From positions 10,033 to 74,032 of the forward strand of contig CALVON010000001.1 of the NCBI GenBank assembly GCA_944350315.1: a stretch of DNA of 64,000 nucleotides, in the 5' to 3' direction. The notes beneath the pieces were generated by a model. That model made no database searches. It had not been told where the DNA came from and was given only the letters and a program-made list of their open reading frames with translations. Source of the stretch: an uncultured Bacilli bacterium. GTDB lineage: Bacteria; Bacillota_I; Bacilli_A; RF39; UBA660. Below, in pieces: positions 2,734-51,740 of the stretch (positions are counted from its first letter, which is position 1; each line of letters starts with the position of its first letter). A program made the position numbers and the translations under genes.

Positions 2734-3273
2734 TTATAATCTTTTATAATTTTTTTTCTTTAAAATCTCCTGATTAATCACAATATTATTTAAAAGTTTA
2801 AATGTAATATATGTAAAATATAAAAATATAAATATAATTACTAAACCTAATATTATTAGTAAAAAAATTGACGTATGTTTATCTATCAGATAATTATATA
2901 TCATACTACTAACATAAATACACAAAGAATTAATTGCGCAAAATAACAAATCAACAGGAATTCTTTTATACATTTTAGATACAATATCTGAACCAATCAT
3001 AAAGAAAACCATAATCAGTATATATATATAATTAAGTCCAGAAAAAGTAGCTGTTGCCCATATTAAAAATATATAATTAAGGGTAAGTAGACTAAATGAT
3101 AAAATTGACCTATTATTCATTCCTAAAAATAAACCATAAAATTTAACTTTATTTGTTTTTACATTATAATTTTTTAAAGTTAACTTAAAAGTAATTGCTA
3201 ATATTATCAAAAATATTAAAGCTACAAATAAGAAATTAACTACATTGCCTAATATATCAATACTTTTATTCAT
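2734..3273 (-). CDS. Polytopic membrane protein (about 5 TM helices), unknown family, inserted between the epsilon-like and gamma-like genes
   Basis: 179 aa and hydrophobic throughout. I could not find the a-subunit type conserved Arg (LRL..N) motif. Confidence 0.55.
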   Translation of the reverse strand: MNKSIDILGNVVNFLFVALIFLIILAITFKLTLKNYNVKTNKVKFYGLFLGMNNRSILSFSLLTLNYIFLIWATATFSGLNYIYILIMVFFMIGSDIVSKMYKRIPVDLLFCAINSLCIYVSSMIYNYLIDKHTSIFLLIILGLVIIFIFLYFTYITFKLLNNIVINQEILKKKNYKRL

Positions 3274-6218: not shown

Positions 6219-6983
6219 TTATACATTCCTTTCACTTAAACTAAAATCATATACCTTATTTCTATATATAATTTTAATACCCCTGTATATTTTATCATTG
6301 AATACTGTATTAATGTATTCACTTAGATGATCATAATTTTCACTCTTATTTCCAACCAATATTGTAATTTTTGGATTATTTAAATCTACTAATTGATCTA
6401 AGTACCCTATAAAATTATCAACGCTCTTTTCACTTACTACAAGGCAAAAAGCTTCATATACCTTATATTCTTTACTATTAAGCATTTTTTTAATTTTTTC
6501 GTCTTGTTCCAAAGACGTCATACTCTTAAGCTCATATATAACATCACTAGTAAACTTACCCCTCAAATTAAGACAAAATTCATAATTTTTATTTTCATCA
6601 CATAAAGATAAAAAGTCTTTAATCAATTCTTCATAATTAACTACAAAATTATCATCAATAAATTTATTAACCTCTAATAAACTTTTATCCTGATATTTAG
6701 CACTATTAAGTAGTTCAATTATATTCGTATCAAAAGCAATTTTTTTATCCTCTTTATTACTATTATCTTCTTTTATTCCCTTTTCTTTATTCTTAATTAA
6801 TTCATCAATTTCTAATAGTTTATTTTCCTTCTCAGTAATTAAATCATCATAACCTTGAAGTTTATTTATAAAATAAGACTTAGTTTGAGAATTAACAATT
6901 CCAACCGTCTTCTTTAATATCATAAACATTAAAAACACAAGAAAAGTAATAATCAAACTAACAATAATAAATAACGTTACCAT
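6219..6983 (-). CDS. Single-TM coiled-coil protein, candidate fused b/delta-like stator subunit
   Basis: 254 aa with an N-terminal TM (LFIIVSLIITFLVFLMFMIL) followed by a charged helical stretch. The C-terminal end (ITILVGNKSE...IYRGIKIIYRNKVYDFSLS) is reminiscent of the delta/OSCP C-terminus (..liGG..v.vgd.viD.S). It sits where atpF-atpH sit in canonical operons. Confidence 0.45.
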   Translation of the reverse strand: MVTLFIIVSLIITFLVFLMFMILKKTVGIVNSQTKSYFINKLQGYDDLITEKENKLLEIDELIKNKEKGIKEDNSNKEDKKIAFDTNIIELLNSAKYQDKSLLEVNKFIDDNFVVNYEELIKDFLSLCDENKNYEFCLNLRGKFTSDVIYELKSMTSLEQDEKIKKMLNSKEYKVYEAFCLVVSEKSVDNFIGYLDQLVDLNNPKITILVGNKSENYDHLSEYINTVFNDKIYRGIKIIYRNKVYDFSLSERNV

Positions 6984-7297: not shown

Positions 7298-7301
<4 letters not shown>

Positions 7302-8029
7302 TTGCTTTTATATAATACACTTAAATTATAAGGTTTACTAAGCAATACTTTATCATTAAATGACATAAAATATCTTTCTGTTAAATTTACATTTATATAT
7401 TCTGAAGTAACACTGACATTTTTTCCCTCTACCTCTATTACTTCACTAAAATCGTTTGCATAATCATAATATACTAAAGTATTATTGCCAACCACTGATA
7501 CATAAGAACCACCGCTAAGCTCTTTATATAAAACATCATTAATTAACAAGTTGGCATCATATGGAAAGAAAAATAAATCTTCTCCATCATACATAAAGAA
7601 ATATTCATAAAATGAAGAATCAGTACCATTTTTAATACTATGAATACTATCGTCATTAATATAACTTGCATACTTATAAATACGATATTGGCTTCCTTCT
7701 CTTAAAGGAAAAGCTACAATCATTTCCTGTGGAAATATTACTTCTAATCTATCTTTATAATATATTGGCGTCGAATCATAATCTATTTTTTTATCTTTTG
7801 CTTTAATATCGACAATTTTCTCTTTCATGTCATATGTAATTACTGCCGTGTATTCTGTTTTAATACCTCCAAAATACTGATAAACTAAAGTGTCTCGTTT
7901 ATCTCTATAATTATCATATTGATATTCCCTATATAGAAAATAAAGGGTAATAAGTAACCCAAATACAACAATTATTGGTATAAATATTTTATATTTTTCC
8001 TGAAAAATTTTTTTAATCTTATTACCCAT
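7298..8029 (-). CDS. Single-pass (N-terminal TM) extracytoplasmic protein, unknown family
   Basis: 243 aa with TM IFIPIIVVFGLLITLYFLY, then a beta-rich, Y/D/N-rich domain. GGGAGG RBS and a 2-nt gap to the upstream gene. Confidence 0.6.
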
Positions 8030-8031
8030 AA

Positions 8032-9471
8032 TTACCTCCCAAACTTAAACGAATAACTACTATTAATATCTATTGTTCCAAAACTTCCCAAAACATTAAC
8101 AACTGATAATTTTAATTGTGTATTTTTATCAATATTATAACCAGATATATCGAAGGTTCCCATAATATACTTCAAATTTTCTGAAACTATTAAATTATCA
8201 TCGATAGATGCACTTTTTTTAACAGTAGAACCATCTGTAGGATCCACTTCATAATAATCAAATGATAAATTGACTTTTATATTATCAACTTTATAGCCAC
8301 TTTCCAAATATACTTTATAAGTAATTGTGTTATTGACACTGCTAACTTTATACACCTCTATAGAATATTCTGGTTTTTTAGTTGTTACATTCATTTTGTC
8401 GAATGTATTTCTAATTATTTCTCCAGAATCATCTGCAGTAGTATAAACAAAACTTAATTCATACATCGTATCTGGAGCAAGATTATCAAAAACAACATGT
8501 GTATCATTTTTGGATAAATATATAACTTCTAATTTACCATCTTTTAGAATTTCAACATATACTGACTTGTATTCATTATAAGGATCATATACTACATAGT
8601 CGACATCTATTTGTGACAACCCAGAAGTAACTCTTACTACTGAAGTCATTTTTGTCTTATCTTTAATATCTTCTATATCACTATTATCATTTCCACTACC
8701 GCCATTATTAACAACACCACTTCCACTACCACCATTACTACCTACCTGATTATTACCACTACTATTACCAGCGCCATTATCAGTACCATCATCATCATCT
8801 TCTTCTTCAGGAACATATTGGTTTGTAGTACCTATAATTTTCTTTAAATCAATATCATAATTACCAAAATTAATAATTTCATTATTAATATCGAAACGAT
8901 ATTTTGCTGTAACTAAAATAGTTGGCGTAATTGTCTTTAAATTAACTTTATTGTTAGATAGTTTCGCATTTCCTAGTTTATCAAGTTCTACTAACAAATA
9001 GTTACTCGCCTGGACATTATTATCACTACTCTTAATCTCTCTATCAACTACTAAATATTCCCTATCGGCGAGTTTATAAAATTTTGTATTAGTAGTATTA
9101 GGTAAAATTGTTTCATCAACATTTTTAACAATTTTTCCGTCTTCTTGAATTTCATAAAAGTCGCCATATAATTTCAATGAACCTGTAATTTCATTATAGA
9201 CAATAACTTTTTTCCCTAAAGAAATTTCCTTATCTTGATAAACTAAATAATAATTATCGTTCCATCTTATTTTTAACTTTGCATCATCATCAACTTGTAT
9301 ATAATTTTTATCAGTATCTTGAATAATAGCTCCAGATTCAATTAAATATTCTACTTTTAATGCTTTTGTATACTTGTAAATAAACAAGGAGAAAACAAAA
9401 ACAACTAAAACCATTAAAATCAAAATAACTAAAAAACTTCTTTTATTCCTTATATCATATTTTCTCCTCAT
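8032..9471 (-). CDS. Single-pass surface protein: TM, membrane-proximal domain, acidic/Gly-Ser-Asn linker, FN3-like domains
   Basis: 479 aa with TM FLVILILMVLVVFVFSLFIY, linker EEEDDDDGTDNGAGNSSGNNQVGSNGGSGSGVVNNGGSGNDNSD, and an FN3-like signature DTMYELSFVY. GGAGGA RBS overlaps the stop of the giant gene. Confidence 0.65.
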   Translation of the reverse strand: MRRKYDIRNKRSFLVILILMVLVVFVFSLFIYKYTKALKVEYLIESGAIIQDTDKNYIQVDDDAKLKIRWNDNYYLVYQDKEISLGKKVIVYNEITGSLKLYGDFYEIQEDGKIVKNVDETILPNTTNTKFYKLADREYLVVDREIKSSDNNVQASNYLLVELDKLGNAKLSNNKVNLKTITPTILVTAKYRFDINNEIINFGNYDIDLKKIIGTTNQYVPEEEDDDDGTDNGAGNSSGNNQVGSNGGSGSGVVNNGGSGNDNSDIEDIKDKTKMTSVVRVTSGLSQIDVDYVVYDPYNEYKSVYVEILKDGKLEVIYLSKNDTHVVFDNLAPDTMYELSFVYTTADDSGEIIRNTFDKMNVTTKKPEYSIEVYKVSSVNNTITYKVYLESGYKVDNIKVNLSFDYYEVDPTDGSTVKKSASIDDNLIVSENLKYIMGTFDISGYNIDKNTQLKLSVVNVLGSFGTIDINSSYSFKFGR

Positions 9472-9479
9472 TTTTCCTC

Positions 9480-12400
9480 CTAATTGTTATTTTCCATATC
9501 TTTAACATAAGCAACACTTGCTGTAAATGATGGATTATATGCTGCTGTTAAATTAACTAATTTTTCTGGATCATTAGGATCTTTAACATCAAAACTAAGT
9601 GTTATTAAATAATACATTCCTTCAGTATTTTTAATACCATCATTTCTCGTTATTACATACATCCCATATCCTGATTCATCATTAAATTCAAATTTATTTT
9701 TATCACCAATCGTATCAGTACCACTTACAATAAGACCACCATTAAATTCATCATCTAAACTGATAGAATAATTAACATTGACTACATTATCAAAGTTAGT
9801 ACCACTTCTAAATAACACAATATAACTATTATCTGTAATAACATAAGAAATATCATGTCCAAATGTTACCCCATAGCTATCAGTAGTATAAATAGAATGA
9901 CTTCTGCTAACTTCATAAGTTCTATCTTCTTTTGGTATATCTTGACTATAATTATTAACATAAGCATCACTATATACCATAATAGAATATTTTGTATCGG
10001 CATCTAAATCAGTAATTCTAATTTTTTTATTAACTACCAAAGCATCAAATTCATAATTTTCATATTCCTCAATATCAACATATGTCCCGTCGCTACTAAC
10101 TTCCTGCAAAGTACCAACAATATCACCGGATGAATTAACTAATTTTACAAAATATTTACCATTTACTATAGTTCTATCTAAATCATTAACATTAATTGTA
10201 AAATCAATAAAATATTTTCCATCTTCGTATCCCGCTTTTCTAGTCACTACAAATGATGGTTCTCTTAATGCCGTTAACTTAAATATTCTATCTTTACTAG
10301 GTATTAAATTAACATACTGTCTTCCCTCTACATAATCACCATTAACATCTTTTTCATACAAAGATGCTACTGCATATATAAAAATGTAATAATTTTTATT
10401 ATATTCTAAATCATACTTTGTAATATCTTCTTGACTAACAATTGTACTACTAACATCTCCATCAAGAATTTCTTTTTTGAATATATATCCAGAATCTTTT
10501 GTACATGTATTATCTTCACATATCATGTACATAACATCAAAATTGTAAGGATAATTATTTTGATATCTTGTTAAATTAATCTTAGTATTAAGTATTCTAT
10601 TTCCATATATCGTATCGTCTACTTGATAAGTAACTTCTCTATTCGTATATAAACTTTCCCCATTTTTTGTTCCAAAAGAATAAGTTTTTGTTTCATAGCT
10701 ATCTCTTACACTCTCATCAAATAATTGTGTAAATTCATATTTACCATTTTTATATAAATAAGCATAAACATTAAAGTAATATTTTTCACTACTTGTTACT
10801 GAAGCTACACCATCAATAACCGCTTCATATGTTTTATTAGGATTATCAACATCTACTTTAATTTTTACTCTAGGTCTAACAATAGAACTAACATCATGAT
10901 TAAGAGCATCATTTTCATTTTTCCAAACATCAATATATAAATAATATTCTCCGTCTTCATTTTTTATATCATTTAAATCAAGGCCAGATATTGAAAGAGC
11001 CATTACAGAGCCATTAATCAAACTTGTCCTTTGACTAACACTAACTTTAGGGGTAATACTACTAAATGAAAATGTATTATTATCGCACTTCATAGTATCT
11101 ACAGAAATCATTTTTGGATTAAGAATACCATAACTAGAATTATATCCTAAACTAGATAACCCTATATTATTAATGTTATTATAATTATTATTATTCATCA
11201 TACTTTTATAGAATAAAGACGTTCTTTCAGCATTATTAAATGAATAAGTATAATAACCTTTAGTAACATTTAATTCTTCACTCCACAAAGATATCTTTCC
11301 ATTTTTATCAAACGAAATATACTTACCATATTCTGATGTGTTATTATTTTGCATTATCATATATTGGTAGTCCTTACCATCACCAACTGTATAATCATAA
11401 CCAGTAAGTCCATTATCATATAAAGCCTCAATCGTAACTGAAATTATATTTGTCTTGTCAACACTAGATTGCATACCTGCATTTTTTAAATCGATATAAT
11501 CAACAGAAAAGCATCTAGCCTCATTATCAGAAGCAGCACATTTAGATAATTGCCATAATTCTTTATTTAATTCATTACCTAAAGAATCTTTAAATTTAAC
11601 TCTATAACTAACAACTCGATTTAATATTTCTTCACTAGCTAATAATTTAATTGTCACTTTATTGTCAGTAAGTGGATTATTAATAATTTCATACTCAAAA
11701 TTATATATTTCATCATTTGCATCATAAAAACCATCAAATAATACTACACCTTCATCCTTACCATCTAAATAATTAACCACATCATCATCTATTACACCAG
11801 TATTTTTAATATTCTTCTTATAGTATAGTTGATAAGTATCGTTATTATTAAGTCCTGACACTATAATATCACCACTATATTCTTTATTGCCAGTAGAACT
11901 AATAGATAATTTTTGTTCAATCCCACCATTAACTTTATAATAAAAGCCATAATCAACATCGCTGCTTTCTCTATATAAAGCATTATCAGGATCAGTAATT
12001 ACATATCTATATGTAATACTATTAGCATCTGATTTAGCAATATACATTCCTACTTTAGGAGTTTCCTTAGTTGTATAATCAGTCTTTTTATATACTCCAT
12101 AATCAGATGGTGAATCTGCATTATTACTTGAAGGATATAAACTACTTCCAGAATCAGAACTAACTTCAATTTCATAACCTACATAATAACTATTGCCTCT
12201 TACCATCGTCAAACTAGTAGTTCCATATTCAATTCCATAATCCATATACACTTCAGTAAGGTAATTTCCTATTTCTAAATCGCTTATTGACTCACTTATC
12301 TTATCTACTAAAACTAATTCATCAGAATCGTTCTTTATATAAAATTTTACTTTATTAAAGTTCTTATCATACACATATATATTTATCTTCTGTGGCATTA

Positions 12401-15212
12401 ACCCATTAGCAACTAAACCTCGACGATCATATACAGCATTAACCGTATAACCAACAACTGTTCCCGAATCATTAAGTTCATCAAAAAGATTTGCAGAAAG
12501 TCCATTAGTTATTTCATTTACAATAATAATAGGCTCTTCAACATTATCAAGAAGTAAAGACTCAAGAATATTATAAACCATTACATTATTCTCAATTTTT
12601 ACCTCATTCGTTTCTTCTAAATCATAATAAGCTCTTATCATGATTGTATATTCTGGGCTTAACTTTCCATCTTCACCTAAACTCTTTAAGGTATCAATAT
12701 CTAACCCAAAAGTTCCATCAGTAGTAATTGTATAATAATTATCATAAAACATTTCTTTTAAATTAACTGTCTCACTACTTGTAAATACAACAGGCGCTAT
12801 TAATGGATCCTGAGATTTAACATCATCTAAATGATTTCCCTCATATAAACTAATTACTACTTTTTTAATTGCTGCCACTGACTCTTCTGGTGATAAACTA
12901 CCGATATTATTTTTTGATGCCTCCAATTTCACTCTTTGATTAACTACATGATTTGCACTACTTAAAAGTTTATCTTCAGCCGGATAAATAGCCATAAAAC
13001 TAGACAATGTTTTTGTAGAAATATTTCTCTTTGAATCATCTGTATGCATAATTTCTACTCTTTGTTGATCCGCATCATCATTTAAAATAGCACTTACTTC
13101 AATCGTATATTGTGTTCCTTCTTGAAGACCATCAACAAATAAGTCATATTTAATCTCATCATTTACAATTTCAAAATCAGCCACAAAAGATTTAACAATA
13201 ACCTCTCCATTTACAGAATTTTTCTTAATAGTAATTACTGTACTACTATTTTCACTAGCACAACCTTCTCTATTTGGCATACTAACCAAACAACTATTAT
13301 CTGTTAAATAAATTGTCGCTCCTATAGTATTATAGCTTATTAATTCTTCTCTAGGAACAACCGTAACATAAGGGTCACTACCCATTACAAAATTAATTCT
13401 ATCACTTGTTGTATATTCAACATACTTTTCATTATCATAGTATTCAATAACAACTTTATAAAAATAATTTGTATCATTTTTTAATTCATTTTCTCCATTA
13501 CCTACTTTAATTTCTATTGGAGATGCATTCGTCTTAGTAATAGGATTTATTACTAACTTATCTGGATTATCATTTTCATAAACCAAATAAGTATAACTTG
13601 TAATTGCATTATCTGGATCTATTATATTTCCAAGAGATAATTTAAAACTTCCAGAAGCTAAATCTTTATTCGCTTCCATATCACTAAAACTAGGTGTTTT
13701 CTTTAAAGTCATTGAAGTAAGCGTTATATTGTAAACATCTTTAAAATTAGAAGATTCTACAGAAAATTCATCTAAAACAGCTGTATAAATTGTATTACTA
13801 TCTAATCCATCAAATACAATCTCACCATTTTTATCTATATCACTAAGCCATACTACCTTCTCTATATATTTAATTTCACCAGTTGCTCCATCTACATAAC
13901 TAGTCTTAACCACTTCGTTTTGATGAGTTTCTTCATTAAATTTATACAAAGACAATTTTGCATTAGTTATATCTGTTTCTTCATCAACATTAATTTTATA
14001 TCCTATCTCACTATCAGTAGCATACGTTCTTTCTAAACTTATACCAAAATCATTTGTCTCAAATATCTTCTGAAAATATTTTCCATCATCTTTCTCATTA
14101 ATCACCGTAAACAAATATCTCGTTTTAGGAGATAACAAATTAACGTTTATTTCTACATCTTGTAATACTTGAGCTGTCATGTCTACTGTTCTTCCTGTGT
14201 CCATATTAGTAACTTTTAACATAAATCTATCATCTTGTGTATTATTCATAATATCAAAAATTACTGAAACACTAGTACTACTAACAGTAGCTTTTTTTAA
14301 AGAAATAATAATGTCTTCAACATCATCTGGATTAATGCCCTCTCCAGAACCAGTTCCACTACCGTCACCATCTTCTAAATCACCATTGCCATTTTGATCA
14401 TCGCCTGGTGTCTGTACATTACCACCTGTTTCATCATCATTAGGCTTATTATCATCATCTTTATCATCAATAGGAATTATTTCGACATTCTCATTACCAT
14501 CGATAGTTATCTCTGTAATAGACATCACATCCTCATCATTTAAACTAATCTTCTTATCCCCTAAATCGATAATCAAATTATTAACATAAAATAATGTTTC
14601 ATCTGCTGCAACTTGATATTTAACATCCTTATTTTCTATATTGACAATTCCATCTTCAACATATACTATTTCAAAATAATCTCCCTCAATTAAAGATTCA
14701 TTACCAGGAATTTTAGCTTTAACATTACCAACAATAATATATTTATTATCACTAATTCTTCCCATAAAGTTATTAAGTTTAATATCGTTTTTACTACTTT
14801 CTATAACATAACTATCGCCATCTTTATCGATAATTGACTTATTAGTAATATTATAAAAAATAACTGTTCCACTACCCGTCACTGAATCAAGATCAAGTAT
14901 AGCCCCGTTTTTCAGAAATGATAAAGATCCATCCATATAATGAATAAAACTATCCTTAAGAACTGATACTTCATTATTATCAACATCAGTAAACTCAATC
15001 ATAGAAGATAAATTAGTCTTATAACTTGTACTTCCTTCAAAAAAATATTTTTCAACTTTCTCACTAAGAGGATTAAGTACATATCCGCTTTTAACAAAAG
15101 CATCATCACTATCATCAAATAAATATAATGCTCCAAATACTAATAAAATTAAAATAATTAGACTTAAAGATAAAATAAATAAAAACTTTCCATTAAACAT
15201 TTTTTTCATCAT
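9480..15212 (-). CDS. Giant (about 1,910 aa) N-terminally anchored surface protein with many FN3/Ig-like repeats
   Basis: TM FLFILSLSLIILILLVFGALYL and an acidic/Gly linker (DDKDDDNKPNDDETGG...GDGSGTGSGEG). At least 8 recurrences of the FN3 F-strand-like signature [DNKG]T.Y.[FILY].[VI]: KTRYLFTVI, NTIYTAVL, DTNYFYKVVI, GTQYTIEV, DTYQLYY, KYYFNVYAY, KNYYIFIYA, DTKYSIMVY. No LPXTG or C-terminal TM. The ATG at 15212 lies 6 nt after GAGG; the ORF track starts at the GTG inside the RBS. Confidence 0.8.
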   Translation of the reverse strand: MMKKMFNGKFLFILSLSLIILILLVFGALYLFDDSDDAFVKSGYVLNPLSEKVEKYFFEGSTSYKTNLSSMIEFTDVDNNEVSVLKDSFIHYMDGSLSFLKNGAILDLDSVTGSGTVIFYNITNKSIIDKDGDSYVIESSKNDIKLNNFMGRISDNKYIIVGNVKAKIPGNESLIEGDYFEIVYVEDGIVNIENKDVKYQVAADETLFYVNNLIIDLGDKKISLNDEDVMSITEITIDGNENVEIIPIDDKDDDNKPNDDETGGNVQTPGDDQNGNGDLEDGDGSGTGSGEGINPDDVEDIIISLKKATVSSTSVSVIFDIMNNTQDDRFMLKVTNMDTGRTVDMTAQVLQDVEINVNLLSPKTRYLFTVINEKDDGKYFQKIFETNDFGISLERTYATDSEIGYKINVDEETDITNAKLSLYKFNEETHQNEVVKTSYVDGATGEIKYIEKVVWLSDIDKNGEIVFDGLDSNTIYTAVLDEFSVESSNFKDVYNITLTSMTLKKTPSFSDMEANKDLASGSFKLSLGNIIDPDNAITSYTYLVYENDNPDKLVINPITKTNASPIEIKVGNGENELKNDTNYFYKVVIEYYDNEKYVEYTTSDRINFVMGSDPYVTVVPREELISYNTIGATIYLTDNSCLVSMPNREGCASENSSTVITIKKNSVNGEVIVKSFVADFEIVNDEIKYDLFVDGLQEGTQYTIEVSAILNDDADQQRVEIMHTDDSKRNISTKTLSSFMAIYPAEDKLLSSANHVVNQRVKLEASKNNIGSLSPEESVAAIKKVVISLYEGNHLDDVKSQDPLIAPVVFTSSETVNLKEMFYDNYYTITTDGTFGLDIDTLKSLGEDGKLSPEYTIMIRAYYDLEETNEVKIENNVMVYNILESLLLDNVEEPIIIVNEITNGLSANLFDELNDSGTVVGYTVNAVYDRRGLVANGLMPQKINIYVYDKNFNKVKFYIKNDSDELVLVDKISESISDLEIGNYLTEVYMDYGIEYGTTSLTMVRGNSYYVGYEIEVSSDSGSSLYPSSNNADSPSDYGVYKKTDYTTKETPKVGMYIAKSDANSITYRYVITDPDNALYRESSDVDYGFYYKVNGGIEQKLSISSTGNKEYSGDIIVSGLNNNDTYQLYYKKNIKNTGVIDDDVVNYLDGKDEGVVLFDGFYDANDEIYNFEYEIINNPLTDNKVTIKLLASEEILNRVVSYRVKFKDSLGNELNKELWQLSKCAASDNEARCFSVDYIDLKNAGMQSSVDKTNIISVTIEALYDNGLTGYDYTVGDGKDYQYMIMQNNNTSEYGKYISFDKNGKISLWSEELNVTKGYYTYSFNNAERTSLFYKSMMNNNNYNNINNIGLSSLGYNSSYGILNPKMISVDTMKCDNNTFSFSSITPKVSVSQRTSLINGSVMALSISGLDLNDIKNEDGEYYLYIDVWKNENDALNHDVSSIVRPRVKIKVDVDNPNKTYEAVIDGVASVTSSEKYYFNVYAYLYKNGKYEFTQLFDESVRDSYETKTYSFGTKNGESLYTNREVTYQVDDTIYGNRILNTKINLTRYQNNYPYNFDVMYMICEDNTCTKDSGYIFKKEILDGDVSSTIVSQEDITKYDLEYNKNYYIFIYAVASLYEKDVNGDYVEGRQYVNLIPSKDRIFKLTALREPSFVVTRKAGYEDGKYFIDFTINVNDLDRTIVNGKYFVKLVNSSGDIVGTLQEVSSDGTYVDIEEYENYEFDALVVNKKIRITDLDADTKYSIMVYSDAYVNNYSQDIPKEDRTYEVSRSHSIYTTDSYGVTFGHDISYVITDNSYIVLFRSGTNFDNVVNVNYSISLDDEFNGGLIVSGTDTIGDKNKFEFNDESGYGMYVITRNDGIKNTEGMYYLITLSFDVKDPNDPEKLVNLTAAYNPSFTASVAYVKDMENNN

Positions 15213-15249
15213 ACACACCTCTTATATCTTACTACACTATACTATGAAA

Positions 15250-22007: not shown

Positions 22008-23327
22008 ATGAAAAAATTAAATATACAAAAAGTTTTCTGGTTCATAAGCTTCCTATTCATTTTATCATGTTGTATTTTTTATGGTACCAGATTTCTTAAA
22101 CTATACTTAGAAAATAAGAAAGTAGAAATTAAAGAAGAAAATTCTCTAATAAAAGTAATAAGAGAAAATAATGCTGAAAATAAAAACTTTCAAATAGTTA
22201 ATGGCCAAAATTATTTTACCAATAACGATACAAACAACTATTTAGAATATTCAAACATCATGTGGCGAATTATTAAAGTAAATAGTGATAATTCAATTAC
22301 TGCAATTGCTGATAATTCACTAACGTCACTAGCTTTTGGTAAAAATTTAAACTATGAAGATTCACAAATTAATAAATGGCTAAATAATTTTGATGAAGAA
22401 TATACTGGAATTTTAGAAAATTCTCTAAACGAAGTTGAAACATATCTTCAAAAAACATCTACTTGTATAGATACATATAATGAAATAACTAATACTCCAT
22501 GTAGTAATACTACTGAAAAATATTATCTAAGTCTACTCTCAATAGCAGACTACTTAAATATTGGAAGCAAAGACAGTTATCTAAATAATGATGAATTTTA
22601 TTATTTAAGCAGTACAAATGATGAAAACAAAATTTGGTACATTAATGATGATGGTGAAGTATCATCTAATAGTGGAACTGATATATTAGGAATAAAACCA
22701 GTTATAACAATCAAAGCTAACATTGACTATGTAAGTGGTGATGGAACAAAAGATAATCCATATAAAATAGAAAAAGAAAATAATTTATTTGGAGCATATG
22801 TTAAACTTGATGATGATATTTGGAGAATATATCAAGTAAATGAAACAGAAGTAAGATTAATGTTGAATAATTACCTTCAAGTATCTGGAAATAATCTAAC
22901 ATACAACTATTCTAAAAAAACATCATATTATGATGATTATAGTTATGGTTCTATTGCTTATTATTTGAATCACACATTCTTAAACTCTTTATCATATAAA
23001 GATAAAATAAAAGAAGTGTATTGGCCAAATGGATACTATAATAGCGATAATAATTATGACTACACTACCGCATTAAATAGTGAAATAAATAGCAAAGTAG
23101 CCCTAATGAGCATAGGAAATATTTTTCTAAATAGTGACCTAACAAATTATTCTACTATGACAGGATCTATAGAAAAAGGAAATTACATCTATGTTATGCA
23201 ATCATCAAATAAAATATATACCAGAAATATTTCTGGAGAATCAAATATTATACCTACTATTAGTATTGAAAAAGAATTATTAACAAAAGGTAATGGAACG
23301 TATGATAACCCATACGAAATGGAGTAA
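22008..23327 (+). CDS. N-terminally anchored extracytoplasmic protein with two repeats ending in G[DN]GT.DNPY
   Basis: 439 aa with TM VFWFISFLFILSCCIFYG. Repeat ends are SGDGTKDNPYKIE and KGNGTYDNPYEME. Family not recognised. Confidence 0.6.
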   Translation: MKKLNIQKVFWFISFLFILSCCIFYGTRFLKLYLENKKVEIKEENSLIKVIRENNAENKNFQIVNGQNYFTNNDTNNYLEYSNIMWRIIKVNSDNSITAIADNSLTSLAFGKNLNYEDSQINKWLNNFDEEYTGILENSLNEVETYLQKTSTCIDTYNEITNTPCSNTTEKYYLSLLSIADYLNIGSKDSYLNNDEFYYLSSTNDENKIWYINDDGEVSSNSGTDILGIKPVITIKANIDYVSGDGTKDNPYKIEKENNLFGAYVKLDDDIWRIYQVNETEVRLMLNNYLQVSGNNLTYNYSKKTSYYDDYSYGSIAYYLNHTFLNSLSYKDKIKEVYWPNGYYNSDNNYDYTTALNSEINSKVALMSIGNIFLNSDLTNYSTMTGSIEKGNYIYVMQSSNKIYTRNISGESNIIPTISIEKELLTKGNGTYDNPYEME

Positions 23328-34797: not shown

Positions 34798-35766
34798 TTA
34801 CTCATCATCATCACATACTCCAATTAAATCCTTGTAAACTGTATTAACACACTTCTTTTTTTGATTTAATTGAGAATGGACATAAATATTTAACGTTATA
34901 TTAACGGAAGCATGACCTAGTAATTCACTAACAGTCTTATAATCACACCCTAACCGAATACAATTAGAAGCAAAAGTATGCCTTAATGTATGAAAACTAA
35001 CTCTATTTATTCCTGCTTTTCTTAATACTCGATAATAATATTTTCTCAAACTAACCGGTTCTAATGGACTATTTGTACTCGTTAAAACATAATATCCATC
35101 ATTTTTTTTAAATTCTTTTAATTTTTCTATAAATTCAGGATTAACAGGAACAATTCTCATGGAATTTTTAGTTTTTGGTGGTGTAAGAATTAATTTAGAA
35201 ACTTTTTTATTTTTAATATAAATTCTTTGAATAGTTTTATTAATTACTATATAATTTTTATTAAAATTAATATCTCCCCATTTTAAAGCACATAATTCAC
35301 CTATTCTAATCCCCGTATATAAAGAAAGTAAAATCCCCATATCCTTTTCATAGTTTTTTTGCAATAAATAACTTATTAATTTTCTTTGTTCCCCTTTACT
35401 TAAAACCTTTAATTTATTTTTCAAGCAATCATTTGGATAATAAAAGTCTAAATCAATCATTTCCATCATCTTATTTTTAATTGCATATTTTATTGATAAC
35501 TTTAAGATAGAAATAATATCTCTAATTGTTTTACAAGATAACCCTCCTTGTCCATCTACTCTTCCATTTTGATACTTCTTATTAATGAATTCTTGTAATA
35601 ACCTATTGCTAATTTCACTTAAATAATAATCCCCTATATCTGGTATTATATGATTATAAACAATTCCACAATAGTTAGCATATGTTGACTCCTTCAAAAA
35701 ACTCCTTCTTATTTTCAACCATTCCCACACCAAATCCCTATATAAAATTTTTTTTCTTTTAAACAT
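34798..35766 (-). CDS. Tyrosine site-specific recombinase (phage-integrase family)
   Basis: TGIRIGEL (Arg I), HTLRHTFAS (HxxR) and LGHASVNITLNIYVH (catalytic Tyr region). Confidence 0.85.
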   Translation of the reverse strand: MFKRKKILYRDLVWEWLKIRRSFLKESTYANYCGIVYNHIIPDIGDYYLSEISNRLLQEFINKKYQNGRVDGQGGLSCKTIRDIISILKLSIKYAIKNKMMEMIDLDFYYPNDCLKNKLKVLSKGEQRKLISYLLQKNYEKDMGILLSLYTGIRIGELCALKWGDINFNKNYIVINKTIQRIYIKNKKVSKLILTPPKTKNSMRIVPVNPEFIEKLKEFKKNDGYYVLTSTNSPLEPVSLRKYYYRVLRKAGINRVSFHTLRHTFASNCIRLGCDYKTVSELLGHASVNITLNIYVHSQLNQKKKCVNTVYKDLIGVCDDDE

Positions 35767-39013: not shown

Positions 39014-40243
39014 TCAAAAATTAAACATTAACCATTCTGGCCTAAAAATTAGTAGTATACCTATCATCAATAATATAATTCCTTCAACTAATTTAGCAAT
39101 TTTTCCATATTTTGTTGAAAATTCTGCCACTTCCATTGTTTTAAATGCTATAAAAAACACAACTATATCATCCAATAAAAAGAACAACATATATAAAGCA
39201 ATATATAATACCTCTTCAATAAAAGTTAAATTATTCATTGACAATATTTGAACAAACATAACTGGAAGCCCTGCCGAACAAGCCAACTCGACGATATTTA
39301 CTGATATTGCCAAAGCTATAACTCCTGATATTGCCAAAAGCAAATTTTTCTCATGAACAAATTTTCTAATTTTTGAAAATACCTTATTCTTTTTTTTGTA
39401 TGAAACTATACTACAACCATTATTAGACTTATGCCTAATATAACCAAATATATTTATAAAAGCCCCTAACAAGGCCACTATTCCAATAATTACTCTAATA
39501 TAATTAATAGAAAGAAGTAAAGATGCCACATTCAACCATGCCAACATAAGCAATAAGTATATTAATGCCGAAGAAATTAAAAAAGACAATCCTAAAATAA
39601 ACATCTTCTTTCGATCTTTTATCCCAATTAGCATACTAATTAAAAATAATAATACCCACATAGCACAAGGATTAAAACCATCTACTAACCCAATTAAAAC
39701 AGATACAATCGGTAATGTTAAATTTTTTGTATTAACTGTCCCTAAAATGGGAATATTTATTTTATAATTCATATAGTCATCAATATAATTTTCTATATCA
39801 GGTCTATCATCAGAAATTAAATAACTAGGAAGTTCTATTCCCCCTATATATTCTCCTACAATATCCGTATACCCGTACTCTGAATAATATTCAATTACTG
39901 CCATAAATCTAGCCTTAGACTCTTCATAACTAAAGCCTTTATATAATTTCTCTCCAATAATTGTCACAGGGACCCTAGTAACACTCGTATCAAATAATTC
40001 TGATACCTCATCTAGTAATTTAATATTCTCATCATTACTTACTTCATATTTATATACTCTAATATTATCATATTTCTTAACTAAATCATCCCACAAATCT
40101 CTTTCCAAAGAACAATAATAACAAGTATCTGAATAAAATAAATACACATTTACCAAATTTTTATTTTCTTTAGCAATAACACGTGACATCATACTAATAA
40201 AAATAATAACTAGAAATATTAACTTATTTAATCTCTTTTGCAT
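39014..40243 (-). CDS. Thioredoxin/glutaredoxin-like exported domain (CYYC) fused to a CcdA/DsbD-type thiol-disulfide transporter membrane domain
   Basis: Signal/TM, then YSDTCYYCSLE, then a polytopic part containing GFNPCAMWVL. Confidence 0.55.
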   Translation of the reverse strand: MQKRLNKLIFLVIIFISMMSRVIAKENKNLVNVYLFYSDTCYYCSLERDLWDDLVKKYDNIRVYKYEVSNDENIKLLDEVSELFDTSVTRVPVTIIGEKLYKGFSYEESKARFMAVIEYYSEYGYTDIVGEYIGGIELPSYLISDDRPDIENYIDDYMNYKINIPILGTVNTKNLTLPIVSVLIGLVDGFNPCAMWVLLFLISMLIGIKDRKKMFILGLSFLISSALIYLLLMLAWLNVASLLLSINYIRVIIGIVALLGAFINIFGYIRHKSNNGCSIVSYKKKNKVFSKIRKFVHEKNLLLAISGVIALAISVNIVELACSAGLPVMFVQILSMNNLTFIEEVLYIALYMLFFLLDDIVVFFIAFKTMEVAEFSTKYGKIAKLVEGIILLMIGILLIFRPEWLMFNF

Positions 40244-47611: not shown

Positions 47612-47839
47612 ATGGAAAATATTGATATTAGAAACTATATCATAGAAAACTTTAAAGACGATAATGAAGAAAAAATAAAAGATTCCATAGAAACTACTAT
47701 CAAATTCAAAGATGAAGATGCCCTTATCGGATTAGGAGTATTATTTGAAATTCTATGGAATAGTATGACTGAAGAACAAAAAAAAGAAAGCCTTACCCAA
47801 ATAAGAAATAGTATTAAAAATCTAGCTAACCCAAATTAG
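47612..47839 (+). CDS. sspI: Small acid-soluble spore protein SspI
   Basis: LIGLGVLFEILW core and overall length match B. subtilis SspI (LPGLGVLFEVIW). A terminator hairpin CTAGCTAA/TTAGCTAG plus T7 lies at 47822-47850. Confidence 0.65.
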   Translation: MENIDIRNYIIENFKDDNEEKIKDSIETTIKFKDEDALIGLGVLFEILWNSMTEEQKKESLTQIRNSIKNLANPN

Positions 47840-47981
47840 CTAGTTTTTTTACTATAAATCTATTTTTATGTGTTTTATTAACCATAAGGCTAATAAGGAA
47901 TTAAACCTCTACGATATTCCATACTCATAATGTCCTTAAACATTATTTTGACTGAAGATATAAATCTTATATACTGTAGTC

Positions 47982-48094
47982 TGCCGAAAACCAAACGGGC
48001 GGCGTTGTTAGAGTTCGCATTACCATTATTGTTGTTGAAGTTGAAGACGCCCGCATTAACCCCATTGTTGTAGTTACCACCACGATTAAACCAC
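47982..48094 (-). repeat. DGR template-repeat (TR)-like copy of the 3' end of the upstream gene
   Basis: 113 nt, co-linear with 48259-48371 (offset 277). It has 14 AAY codons and 29 coding-strand adenines. 21 of the 25 differences to the VR are at TR adenines. The 68-aa ORF at 47890..48096 is just this repeat read in frame. Confidence 0.75.
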
Positions 48095-48139
48095 ATTTAT
48101 ACCAAAATTATACCCCTCTTTAAACAACCTACCCCATGC

Positions 48140-48167
48140 CCGGTTTGCAAAAAAAGAGGCAAACCGG
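48140..48167. other. GC-rich 9-bp hairpin between VR and TR
   Basis: CCGGTTTGC, a 10-nt loop, then GCAAACCGG. No U-tract on either strand, so it is not a canonical terminator. Confidence 0.5.
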
Positions 48168-48247
48168 ACACATCTCCATTTCGTATTTTTCTGCTACCTA
48201 TTTATCTTTTCCTATTGTCACAGCCTCCGTTTCTAAAGAGCATGTCG

Positions 48248-50050
48248 CTACGCTCCTATGCCGAAAACCAAACGGGCGGCGATGCTAGAGCCCGCACCAC
48301 CAGGGCTGACGCCGAAGCCGAAGACGCCCGCATACACCCCATAGGGGTAGTAGGCACCACGAATAAACCACGGATTACCTGAAGAAACGAAACTGGCATA
48401 ATCACTATACCAGCTAGATGTTTCTGATAAAGCGTGTCCATAACATACTCCACCATTACATGCCGTTAAAATATTTGTTGATGTATACAAATCATAATAT
48501 TTTTTTGCAGGAAAGCTGGTAAAACCACTCCGATATAGTGTATTATTGTAATTTCCCATTACTCTATCATATACGCCTCCAGACATATCATATACTCCAG
48601 TAATATTACCAGTCGAACTAGCAACCTTTGTTAAATCTCTTGTAGTATTATTACTCGTTAAAAAACCATCCCAGGTATATGTTCCATTAGTGCTAGTAGA
48701 TCCGCTTCCGCCAACAGCACCACCACTTCTTCCTGTATAATATCCACTACTATTATTTATGTATATTTCTCTATTTACCCCATATTTGGAATGTGATAGG
48801 TAAGCTACTGCGCCCCATTCACTGTTTTTCATCATATGACTATCTGTTGCTGTAGTTAATCCATAAGTTGATGAACCATTAAATGTTACATTACTATCTG
48901 ATAATTCACCTCCAGCAAATTTTAAGGCTGTTTGAAATTGCGTTGATAAATTTTGGTCTCTTAAGGATTCTACATCTGGTAATATTGTTGGGGTTGTTTC
49001 ATCTCCTGTTGTTTCAAATTTTCCTACCCATATTCCAGATAATTCTTCGCCTGTATCTCTTACTCCATCACTATCATCATCCCACCAAAACGCTGGATGG
49101 GTAATATATTCTCCTACTTGACCACCTGTTGATATTTCATCTTTTGATTCAAATACAATTTCTATCTCTTGTTCACTTCCTAGACTACTTTCTTGCAACG
49201 TCCATATCTTATACTTATATCTTGGTATCCATACAAGGTATGCTAAGATATCTGATTGATTTACTTCTACTCCAGATGTATTTAAATATGTATTTCTTGA
49301 TGATTCAGTCACTAATATGGCATTTGCCCATTCTTTATTTGAATAATTATACCAACTACTATCACTTGTTGATACTGTTTTTATTATGGTATTATCTCCT
49401 GATACATCAAAAGTTATTGGAATCATTCCTTCATCTAATACTGGACTACTAGGTTCTACTTCTGATGATACATCTGTACAACTTCCATTTAATGATAGGC
49501 TAAAAGATTGATTCATTGTTGATGATGATTCCTCAGCAGCATCTAACCATATCCATAAATAAAATGTTGCTGGGGTTGATGAAGAATATTCATTTTCTGT
49601 AAATAATTCTATTTTATCTCCGGCTTTTTTACCTTTAAAATTACCTGATACTACAACATCATCGTATGGACTAGTATCACTAGTAGTAAATGAATACATA
49701 AAATTATCACTATTAGATAGTCCTGTACCGATACTATTTATATCTAACCATAAGTCCATATAGATAGTTTTATCTGCTACATTAACTGTAGGTGTTACGG
49801 TTACTGTTCTTTTAATATAGTTATTACTATTTTGTTCATTTACTTCTGTTGGTACTAAAATAACATCTCCCTGACTTATATTACCCCCACCATCAGCAGC
49901 ACATGAAAAATCTGATTCTAATGTAAATACTACATTAGTTTTTTGTTCTTCACTAGTTTGCCATCTCCAATAAGCTAGTGTTCCCCCTAATATTGTAAAT
50001 ATTACTGTTAATATTGATAATGTAATTATTATTTTTTTATTTCTATCCAT
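48248..50050 (-). CDS. Secreted/anchored protein with C-terminal FGE-sulfatase (C-type-lectin fold)-like domain; candidate DGR target
   Basis: N-terminal hydrophobic segment ending GGTLAYW. The C-terminal half carries ITHPAFWW, NSEWGAVAYLSHSKYG, GVYDMSGGVYDRVMG (compare the FGE motif G.yDM.GNvwEW), and PWFIRG...AARLVFG. The last 37 codons form the VR. Confidence 0.75.
   Translation of the reverse strand: MDRNKKIIITLSILTVIFTILGGTLAYWRWQTSEEQKTNVVFTLESDFSCAADGGGNISQGDVILVPTEVNEQNSNNYIKRTVTVTPTVNVADKTIYMDLWLDINSIGTGLSNSDNFMYSFTTSDTSPYDDVVVSGNFKGKKAGDKIELFTENEYSSSTPATFYLWIWLDAAEESSSTMNQSFSLSLNGSCTDVSSEVEPSSPVLDEGMIPITFDVSGDNTIIKTVSTSDSSWYNYSNKEWANAILVTESSRNTYLNTSGVEVNQSDILAYLVWIPRYKYKIWTLQESSLGSEQEIEIVFESKDEISTGGQVGEYITHPAFWWDDDSDGVRDTGEELSGIWVGKFETTGDETTPTILPDVESLRDQNLSTQFQTALKFAGGELSDSNVTFNGSSTYGLTTATDSHMMKNSEWGAVAYLSHSKYGVNREIYINNSSGYYTGRSGGAVGGSGSTSTNGTYTWDGFLTSNNTTRDLTKVASSTGNITGVYDMSGGVYDRVMGNYNNTLYRSGFTSFPAKKYYDLYTSTNILTACNGGVCYGHALSETSSWYSDYASFVSSGNPWFIRGAYYPYGVYAGVFGFGVSPGGAGSSIAARLVFGIGA
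48259..48371 (-). repeat. DGR variable-repeat (VR)-like segment at the 3' end of the 600-aa gene
   Basis: It encodes WFIRGAYYPYGVYAGVFGFGVSPGGAGSSIAARLVFG, compared with the TR-encoded WFNRGGNYNNGVNAGVFNFNNNNGNANSNNAARLVFG. The adenine-free 3' 22 nt are identical. The segment is locally GC-rich in an AT-rich genome. Confidence 0.75.
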
Positions 50051-50123: not shown

Positions 50124-51740
50124 TTATTTTTCTATTAATACACTTCTAGTACCAATCATTGGACTACCCATACTAATATCTCCAAAATAGAATAATGCTT
50201 TATCTTTACCCCCTCTAATTATATAATCTCTATTACTCATAATTGAATTACCATTATACCAAGTATTTCCATCACTTAAAATTACTTCTTTAGTAGCACT
50301 ACCTATATTATAATTACCATATACATATTCTGATAAAGAACCAGCCATATCATATACTCCATATACATTTCTAGTAGTAGTATCTTGTTTATCATCTCCA
50401 GTAATATAACTACTATTTACTGATATACTAGAACATCCATCTATAGAACATACTCCATATTTAGAATGTGATAAATATAATGTAGCTCCCCATTCTAAAT
50501 TATTAACTATATGACTTTCTACTTTATCCCCTAAATTATAACTATTACTAAGACTACTAGTTATATTTTGATAATTAACTAATGTATCATTAGCATATCC
50601 CTCTACTAAAGGTATACTTAAATAATTATCATTATTTTTACTTATTTCATATTTATTAATCCAAAATCCCGTTAAATCATTTCCAAATACTGGATGAGTA
50701 ATATACATATCATTACTATACTTATTAGCTATTACTGTACTATTTAATTTATTTTCAAATATAATATCTATTCCATTATCATAAGCATTATAACTATCAT
50801 CTACTAAATCCATTGCATTCCATAATTTATATCTATATCTAGGTATCCATACATAGTATGCAAGTATATCTTCACTATTAATCTTCATTCCTACAGTAGT
50901 ATATACATTATTTTTAACAACTACTGCATTAGCCCATTTCTGATTATTATAATCATACCATAAATTATCTTTATTACTATTCTCCCTATCAGCTACTACC
51001 CATGAACCATTACTATATACAATAGGTACCATATTATCATATAAAATTGGTCTATTAGCACAAGAAGTATCATAATTAGCTACTCTTGTATATTCTTTCT
51101 TAGCCCCTCCATATAAAGCAATAAATACTTTCATCTTCATCTTACTATTAGCTATATTACTTTGATCTATCAAAGTACAAGTAGTTAAATCATCACAACT
51201 CTCACTTATCCACATAATTAATGTATATTTATCATAATCTTCATTATATTTAGGTAAATCTTCTTGAATAGTAGTAAGTCTATAATTATCTTCTAATATA
51301 CTACCATCAAATTCTGGAGATAAATTACCAGAAGATAATAATTTCCCATTCTTATATAAATTCCATTTAGTATATTCATTTAATAAAGAACAATCTATTT
51401 CCATATCACTTAACATAACATCATATATTAAATCTTCTTCTTTATTAGTAGATACTCCTCTTAAAGAAAACTCTAATCTAATAACATTATCTTTAGTATT
51501 TATATTTATATATTCATCACTAATAGGTTCTAATCCATTAAAAGAAATATCTTCATCTCCAACATATTCTACATTATATTCTCCCCCAGTAATTAATGTT
51601 TGTGTTCTATCATTAAGTAATTTAGAAGTAGCAAAAGTAATTCCCCCTATTCCTAATACAATAACTAATATTTCAAATACTATTACTAAAATATTTTTAT
51701 TCTTAAATCCCTTTATCTTTTTATCTTCATCCATAATCAC
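50124..51740 (-). CDS. Paralogous FGE-sulfatase-like domain protein without a VR
   Basis: It shares LWYDYNNQKWANAVVV, ILAYYVWIPRYRYKLW, ITHPVF, NLEWGATLYLSHSKYG and GVYDMAGSLSEYVYG with the 600-aa protein. Its C-terminus (IIRGGKDKALFYFGDISMG...) has no match to the TR. Confidence 0.7.
   Translation of the reverse strand: MIMDEDKKIKGFKNKNILVIVFEILVIVLGIGGITFATSKLLNDRTQTLITGGEYNVEYVGDEDISFNGLEPISDEYININTKDNVIRLEFSLRGVSTNKEEDLIYDVMLSDMEIDCSLLNEYTKWNLYKNGKLLSSGNLSPEFDGSILEDNYRLTTIQEDLPKYNEDYDKYTLIMWISESCDDLTTCTLIDQSNIANSKMKMKVFIALYGGAKKEYTRVANYDTSCANRPILYDNMVPIVYSNGSWVVADRENSNKDNLWYDYNNQKWANAVVVKNNVYTTVGMKINSEDILAYYVWIPRYRYKLWNAMDLVDDSYNAYDNGIDIIFENKLNSTVIANKYSNDMYITHPVFGNDLTGFWINKYEISKNNDNYLSIPLVEGYANDTLVNYQNITSSLSNSYNLGDKVESHIVNNLEWGATLYLSHSKYGVCSIDGCSSISVNSSYITGDDKQDTTTRNVYGVYDMAGSLSEYVYGNYNIGSATKEVILSDGNTWYNGNSIMSNRDYIIRGGKDKALFYFGDISMGSPMIGTRSVLIEK

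Follow-up and report, generated by a model that had tools for sequence, protein, structure and literature searches.

The window analysed here is a 64-kb stretch of contig CALVON010000001.1, chromosomal DNA of a low-GC, spore-forming Firmicute with recA, trmD, rimM, ATP synthase genes, glyS, sspI and lemA. Coordinates are those of the whole stretch, and the coding strand of the elements described below is the minus strand. At this locus, an open reading frame (ORF) of 600 amino acids (aa) ends in a GC-rich variable repeat (VR) and is followed by a spacer with a hairpin, by a second copy of the repeat that has the make-up of a template repeat (TR), by a shortened RNA segment like that of diversity-generating retroelements (DGRs) and, in convergent orientation, by sspI. 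DGRs, which have a reverse transcriptase (RT) as their defining component, are well described and known to abound in gut Firmicutes and Bacilli. The locus retains cis parts only; it is non-autonomous and is not a complete DGR.

Results

A template and variable repeat pair beside sspI

A first-pass annotation had pointed to a direct repeat, in the same orientation and register, as the hallmark of a DGR. A repeat finder recovers it as a single two-copy repeat of 113 nt (47982-48094 and 48259-48371), with 78% identity and a spacing of 277 nt from start to start. The VR (48259-48371, minus strand) lies in frame within the 600-aa ORF (48248-50050, minus strand), hereafter the target gene, of which it forms the final 37 codons; 8 nt separate its end from the TAG stop codon (48248-48250). 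The TR (47982-48094, minus strand) contains 14 AAY codons, and its 5′ side is shortened with respect to the TRs of three related loci (L012, L047 and L055). Related loci and contigs carry L numbers here and proteins P numbers; a scan of metagenome contigs for target homologues gave 79 loci.

Recounting the differences between the two copies on the minus strand gave the same figures as the first-pass annotation, namely 25 mismatches, 21 of them at TR adenines. From TR to VR, these adenines become G (11), T (6) or C (4), and all 14 AAY codons are altered in the VR, each exactly as had been listed. The four remaining mismatches consist of GGT to GCC (two changes), GTT to GTG, and the third base of an AAT codon that becomes AGC. 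Two details had to be amended: the TR holds 30 adenines and not 29, of which the 21 reported are indeed changed, and the 3′ terminal 22-mer (GCCGCCCGTTTGGTTTTCGGCA), although identical in both copies, is not free of adenine since its last base is the 30th. This 22-mer occurs twice in the window with up to three mismatches allowed, for a chance expectation of 0, and the homology between TR and VR stops directly after it. The hypergeometric probability that at least 21 of 25 mismatches fall on 30 adenines among 113 positions is 3.5e-12. The repeats also stand out by their composition, as had been remarked, with 62% GC in the VR and 46% in the TR against 26% in the window, the remainder of the target gene being at 32%.

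Could the pair be an ordinary tandem segmental duplication of the 3′ end of the gene, altered by normal mutation or gene conversion and without any reverse transcription? The downstream copy can be read as a gene fragment, in that its counterpart in L012 extends into gene-like sequence and the full gene of L013 ends at the same place. However, the differences fall overwhelmingly on the adenines of one copy only, all the variable codons are AAY in that same copy, and the copy is followed by an RNA segment homologous to that of complete DGRs. We consider a simple duplication to be very improbable and effectively refuted by the adenine asymmetry together with the homology to complete cassettes.

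Several cis elements surround the repeats. The spacer between VR and TR holds a 12-bp hairpin with a CUCUUUUUUU loop (48137-48170, minus strand; -11.7 kcal/mol, z = -5.0), which is also present in L047 (12191-12226) and L049 (~12128-12163) with compensatory changes in the stem. As a side observation, no U-tract follows this stem, so that it is not a standard terminator. The 35 nt on the 3′ side of the VR (48224-48258, minus strand; TAGGAGCGTAGCGACATGCTCTTTAGAAACGGAGG) are conserved among paralogue VRs and occupy the site where DGRs carry a target-recognition hairpin; the same flank (TAGGAGCGTAGCGACATGCTC...) stands after paralogue VRs whose genomic surroundings are unrelated (L001, L002, L012 and L015). 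In the window, the hairpin at this site is weak and no better than in shuffled sequences (-2.5 kcal/mol, z = +0.68). Elsewhere it is strong, with a GAA loop, in L047 (z = -2.8) and weaker in L055 (z = -1.28).

Compared with L012, 59 nt are missing on the 5′ side of the window TR, among them the motif GGGATTAAAYTGTAA and a 5′ segment of the TR. The motif GGGAUUAAAYUGUAA upstream of TRs is conserved in L012, L049 and L055, degenerate in L047 and gone from the window. Besides this, the TR of L012 (~2981-3215, minus strand) differs from that of the window at 14 of 113 positions, 5 of them adenines, with 8 differences clustered in the final 20 nt, and its 3′ end no longer matches the 3′ end of the adjacent VR. 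The 122 nt that follow the TR differ at only 2 positions between the two loci, and the flanks are 97.4% identical. The TR itself seems to have been patch-replaced, perhaps through a recombination event in which a paralogous VR or TR took part.

Complete cassettes in relatives and the truncated template RNA

The clearest complete DGR was found after the target gene of L047 (28% GC), the product of which is 60% identical to that of the window. Its elements follow one another as target, VR (11944-12088), the GAA-loop hairpin and then the CUCUUUUUUU-loop hairpin, both between VR and TR, TR (12270-12414), a conserved non-coding sequence of ~165 nt after the TR, a MutS_I-like ORF of 131 aa (PF01624, 4.5e-9), bAvd (PF22296, 1.5e-20) and RT (RVT_1, 1.5e-17). 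In L050, L098, L086 and L083, the TR/VR pair is likewise accompanied by Avd and by an RT ORF that is unbroken, as it is in the phage contig L019, where the order is Avd-RT-TR-target. In each of these loci, the differences between TR and VR are biased towards adenines (12/14 to 19/20). In three otherwise complete cassettes, the RT is split into two ORFs (L040, 2734-3746; L057, 2526-3560; L048, 4197-5251); these may be pseudogenes or reflect sequencing errors.

The TR of the window, its spacer hairpin and the ~120 nt of RNA after the TR align to L047, L040 and L055. Because the adenine bias is extreme and these cis parts are homologous to those of complete MutS-like/bAvd/RT cassettes, the repeat pair is genuinely of the DGR type. 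The predicted parent is a DGR of the MutS-like/bAvd/RT type, which is common in uncultured low-GC gut Bacilli; homologues of both the cassette and the target proteins are labelled by their sources as "Bacilli bacterium" metagenome-assembled genomes.

The RNA downstream of the TR was aligned over ten elements with two hairpins, and a covariance model (R1) was built from this alignment. Of the 21 predicted pairs, 15 are kept through two-sided changes in at least one sequence, and the terminal hairpin encloses a near-invariant UAGUAGCAAAAUGGUGAA. In the window, the corresponding segment (47860-47981, minus strand), a truncated 3′ domain of the DGR RNA that resembles RT-14, still has its first hairpin as well as the conserved motifs of the centre. 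It scores 83.7 bits with R1, against ~124-144 bits for intact bacterial copies, 103.9 bits for L055 and 89.8 bits for the phage contig L019. No nucleotide of the window matches model positions 117-161, which make up the entire terminal hairpin. The Rfam model RT-14 (RF02921; gathering cut-off, 48.1 bits) reveals the same gap at the 3′ hairpin and gives the window 21.9 bits (E = 1.6), below the cut-off. Over the full model, L019 (85.3 bits) and L071 (56.7 bits) pass, and L047 reaches 43.8 bits.

Homology is lost within the 5′ arm of the terminal hairpin (...AAAAAUAGAUU) and the sequence runs straight into the terminator of sspI, a convergent gene on the plus strand (47612-47839), so that only ~140 nt separate the TR from this terminator. 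The deletion boundary (47822-47859) is the position at which homology to complete cassettes stops (...AACACATAAAAATAGATT), with the bidirectional sspI terminator directly after, and relatives carry the MutS-like, bAvd and RT genes at this place.

Search for the enzyme genes

None of the ~38 ORFs of the window has a Pfam match to RVT_1, bAvd or MutS_I. Clade proteins (three RTs, two Avds and a MutS-like protein) were compared with the 64 kb by tblastn, and all matches had E > 0.3. A scan of the window for YxDD and IGxxxSQ motifs found no RT. A 409-aa ORF with a YIDD motif (39014-40243) was considered as an RT and rejected, as it reads as a multi-pass membrane protein with an N-terminal CxxC motif. 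The search was carried past the ends of the window on two contigs chosen through proteins identical to those at the window ends: no RT, Avd or MutS-like gene is present in the ~8 kb that L103 (17 kb fetched, from the same sample as L015) adds beyond the left end, nor in the ~3.9 kb that L108 adds beyond the right end. On inspection, an unannotated 345-aa ORF in the right-hand extension (L108) does not encode an RT. The samples from which L015, L012 and L103 derive are ERZ24773461 and SRR34436978.

Larger collections were queried with the repeats themselves. TR patterns gave 0 matches in viral contigs and metagenome contigs, and the 22-mer with two N positions gave only chance matches in genome contigs, from high-GC genomes. 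No complete cassette of the window sub-type, that is with the 3′ end GCCGCCCGTTTGGTTTTCGGCA, was encountered in any collection searched; an RT homologue search followed by inspection of the context of P0137 led to the L047 sub-type and not to that of the window. The claim of a DGR hallmark in the first-pass annotation thus holds for the repeat pair, which is of the DGR type, but does not extend to a working DGR, as no RT was found and the template RNA is without its terminal hairpin.

Variation among relatives and loss of the enzyme module

Strain variation at the TR-adenine positions had been named as a test of diversification. None was seen in the comparison with L015, a single, near-clonal contig that differs from the window at 2 positions in 2766 nt (99.93% identity) and in which VR and TR are identical to those of the window. 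More broadly, orthologues that share 97% identity or more outside the VR show 0-2 residue differences within it, and at ~92% identity outside the VR the VR region is only ~70% identical (P0001/P0004). Because VRs are near-identical in the first case and strongly divergent in the second, rewriting of the VR would proceed, in the sets sampled, on evolutionary rather than strain time scales. The VR of the L002 paralogue shows 21 differences from the window TR, 18 of them at TR adenines; as most of these differences are at adenines, TRs of the window type have evidently written several genes.

These data bear on a reading in which the local TR is dead and the VR is still live, a complete cassette elsewhere with a matching TR 3′ end rewriting the VR remotely. 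The conserved flank on the 3′ side of the VR, common to paralogues in unrelated contexts (L001, L002 and L012), would be expected if a single machinery acted on all of them, and the adenine pattern of the L002 VR points the same way. Against this stand the failure to find a cassette with the required 3′ end in the collections searched, the weakness of the hairpin 3′ of the VR in the window sub-type and the frozen VRs of close orthologues. We regard such remote rewriting as unlikely.

A further possibility is that the DGR is split but working, with RT and bAvd (and the MutS-like protein) encoded at a distance (>16 kb on one side, >55 kb on the other) and using the local TR in trans. All 14 AAY codons are kept, the 3′ 22 nt of the TR equal those of the VR, and conservation is good in the spacer hairpin and in what is left of the RNA. 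The RT-less layout is found in at least two distinguishable strains (the window with L015, and L012) and has therefore persisted for some time, and paralogous targets with no RT beside them are numerous in clade genomes (L001-L004 and most of L020-L098), which makes action in trans on remote VRs plausible for the clade. On the other hand, the deleted terminal hairpin is the most conserved and covarying part of the RNA and is kept even in the phage DGR. Also deleted are the 5′ part of the TR and the conserved motif that precedes TRs; no VR variation is seen between near-identical contigs, and no intact RT serving a distant TR was found among the loci retrieved. A split system of this kind is, in our view, quite unlikely. 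If it did exist, the RT-Avd pair would lie tens of kb away or on a mobile element or phage, diversification would be episodic and depend on acquisition of an enzyme module, and DGR finders centred on the RT would systematically miss such loci.

Relatives of the locus show cassettes in various states of decay. The RT-less layout of the window is common to L012 and L015. In L001, which has an 89% orthologue and shares the upstream synteny of the window, VR and spacer are kept and the TR is gone; in L013, only the VR is left and the gene ends directly at sspI. The L049 locus has an internally deleted TR, a full RNA and a truncated MutS-like gene, with no Avd or RT and with unrelated genes beyond. 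TR and RNA are still present in L055; its MutS-like gene is split, and Avd and RT are again missing. Finally, L039 has an insertion after a MutS-like stub, with a 409-aa ORF that reads as transposase-like. Because all these states of decay are seen, loss of the enzyme module is a recurrent event in the clade.

Other rearrangements were noted in the vicinity. Two loci (L013, ~1551-1700, minus strand; L046, ~2300-2420) have no spacer or TR, and their diversified VR is fused to the sequence elsewhere found after the TR; this could be the product of VR-by-TR recombination or an assembly collapse. In L011, L014, L016, L017 and L018, genes for KilA-N, RhuM or Mob_Pre proteins stand just downstream of sspI (~47840-48100 in the window) and there is no target gene, and the site beside sspI appears, from these arrangements, to be a hot spot for insertion or rearrangement.

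The target protein

The product of the target gene has an N-terminal membrane anchor, a beta-rich domain, which is confidently modelled, and a C-terminal domain of ~286 aa, predicted to be FGE/C-type-lectin-like, that ends in the VR. We retrieved 6803 homologues; in an alignment of 37 of them, column entropy peaks in the last 40-60 residues, at the AAY-templated positions. The FGE-sulfatase/C-type-lectin fold put forward by the first-pass annotation receives weak support. The PF03781 (FGE-sulfatase) score of the window protein is 13.8 bits (E = 0.047), below the gathering cut-off of 23.3 bits, with weak matches in 35 of 37 family members (best, 4.1e-5), and a profile search of PDB sequences with the target returned nothing relevant. 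A full-length structure prediction from 37 sequences gave the C-terminal domain a predicted local distance difference test score (pLDDT) below 50; restricted to the C-terminal 286 aa and based on 122 sequences, the model reached a pLDDT of 71.7 and a predicted TM-score (pTM) of 0.78. Foldseek matches to this model in the PDB are of the expected class, as 24 of 25 are DGR variable proteins (TaqVP, TvpA and Mtd), FGE or the FGE-like EgtB-IV, the other one (rank 25) being unrelated and negligible. The best of them is Thermus TaqVP (5vf4; E = 2.7e-3, TM 0.45, probability 0.95), and none reaches E <= 1e-3. On this modelling, an FGE/C-type-lectin fold is plausible for the C-terminus of the target.

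Many target homologues have a prepilin-type N-terminus (PF07963; for example P0251, P0289 and P0300), and pilus-type genes lie near two of the loci, L002 (T2SSF and prepilin peptidase) and L004 (N_methyl prepilin-type). Because of these N-termini and neighbours, a location of the target family at the surface or on a pseudopilus is suggested, and the domain shaped by the DGR may be displayed on a pseudopilus. Incidentally, the L055 protein (79-1662) carries the type IV prepilin N-methylation motif GFTLIELL, in place of which the window protein has a plain membrane anchor.

A paralogue of 538 aa is encoded in tandem upstream of the target gene (50124-51740, minus strand), outside the repeat pair. 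It has the same scaffold motifs and an undiversified C-terminus, the last 113 nt of the gene are AT-rich (28% GC), and the neighbour relation is conserved in L001. We also noted homologues of ~1000 aa with two copies of the domain, in L004 and L002 (3457-6567). In L004, both domain ends (11549-11722 and 12740-12913) are GC-rich and VR-like, which suggests the presence of two VRs within one protein.

The rest of the window contains other features worth recording. A phage-type integrase gene (34798-35766, minus strand) stands beside divIVA-like genes, pgsA and a gene for a helix-turn-helix (HTH) protein. Gene order is different in L047 and L099, where the DGR cassette is found just upstream of obg-divIVA-HTH-pgsA. 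An ORF of 1912 aa (9480-15218, minus strand) and several ORFs with no Pfam match (172-1941, 6219-6983, 7298-8029, 8032-9471 and 22008-23327) stand beside the ATP synthase operon.

Discussion

We propose that the locus is the remnant of a DGR from which RT, bAvd, the MutS-like gene and the terminal hairpin of the RNA have been deleted and in which the VR is frozen, and we give this interpretation a probability of about 70%. That the remnant is non-autonomous and probably dead follows from the failure to find the three genes in the stretch searched and from the loss of the terminal hairpin.

The following scenario can be put forward. In intact relatives, as in established DGR biology, the TR and the structured RNA downstream are presumably transcribed, and RT together with bAvd would copy the TR into cDNA, misincorporating nucleotides opposite adenines. 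This cDNA would then replace the VR at the 3′ end of the gene for the surface protein, so that ~14 AAY-templated codons on the binding face of the FGE/C-type-lectin-like domain are randomised. We infer that the VR of the window was written by such mutagenic retrohoming in the past. Later, a deletion would have taken out the terminal hairpin with the MutS-like, bAvd and RT genes and joined the remnant to the sspI terminator, and a second deletion would have removed ~59 nt from the 5′ edge of the TR. The target survives as an intact ORF with a VR that would be frozen, at a locus that is presumably inactive today and most likely no longer diversifies.

Several points weigh against this proposal. 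An RT/Avd pair elsewhere in the genome, beyond the stretch searched, could act in trans. In the TR, all 14 AAY codons are still perfect, and the 122 nt of RNA that remain have diverged very little from L012; this could reflect selection, or simply a recent deletion. The four mismatches outside adenines are not above the number seen in RT-bearing relatives (0-4), and for this reason we rejected them as proof of long inactivity. The terminal hairpin may not be essential in this class of DGRs. Lastly, the identity of the L015 VR with that of the window says little on activity, the contig being nearly clonal.

The find is in itself unsurprising, since it would be a decayed form of a known kind of system. 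It nonetheless offers a clean and well-anchored example of DGR decay, in which cis elements and a frozen hypervariable surface protein appear to outlast the enzyme module. The remnant fits into the decay series of its relatives, which comprises internal deletion of the TR, splitting or truncation of the MutS-like gene, a transposase-like insertion and loci with the VR only. Pipelines that look for the RT first would be blind to such remnants, and counts of genes shaped by DGRs are then underestimated. The target family is, moreover, very large: its members in uncultured gut Bacilli, membrane-anchored or prepilin-like, number in the thousands, and their ligand-binding end would have been shaped by mutagenic retrohoming.

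How does the remnant compare with known systems? The DGR of Bordetella phage BPP-1, with the order mtd-avd-TR-brt, is the mechanistic prototype. The window shares with it the adenine-specific differences from TR to VR, an AAY-rich template, a VR at the C-terminus of a putative ligand-binding protein and a homology that ends a few nt past the GC-rich 3′ segment. It differs in being chromosomal rather than of phage origin, in having no RT or Avd, in the weakness of the hairpin 3′ of its VR and, in its relatives, in the order target-TR-MutS-like-avd-RT.

Among solved variable proteins, TaqVP (5vf4), TvpA (2y3c) and Mtd (1yu0) were retrieved from the PDB by the C-terminal model of the target, with a similarity that is marginal (10-17% identity). 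None of these three is known to have a membrane anchor or a prepilin-type N-terminus. The target differs from them in this respect by its anchor, and many of its homologues by their prepilin-type N-terminus. As for the RNA, the remnant aligns to the 5′ two-thirds of the RT-14 model (RF02921), a structured RNA associated with RTs, and differs from it by the absence of the 3′ hairpin.

A close parallel is with DGRs that combine a MutS-like (MSL) gene with avd, described as 'Architecture D', in which MSL proteins of 112-283 aa always co-occur with avd (Wu et al. 2018, Nucleic Acids Res 46:11, PMC5758913). In agreement with this architecture, L047, L050, L098, L086 and L040 carry target-VR, TR, a small MutS_I-like ORF, bAvd and RT on one strand. 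The window departs from it by the loss of all three genes and by its shortened template RNA, and would represent a remnant rather than a working member of this group, to whose MSL/bAvd/RT cassettes its TR, VR and flanking RNA are nevertheless homologous.

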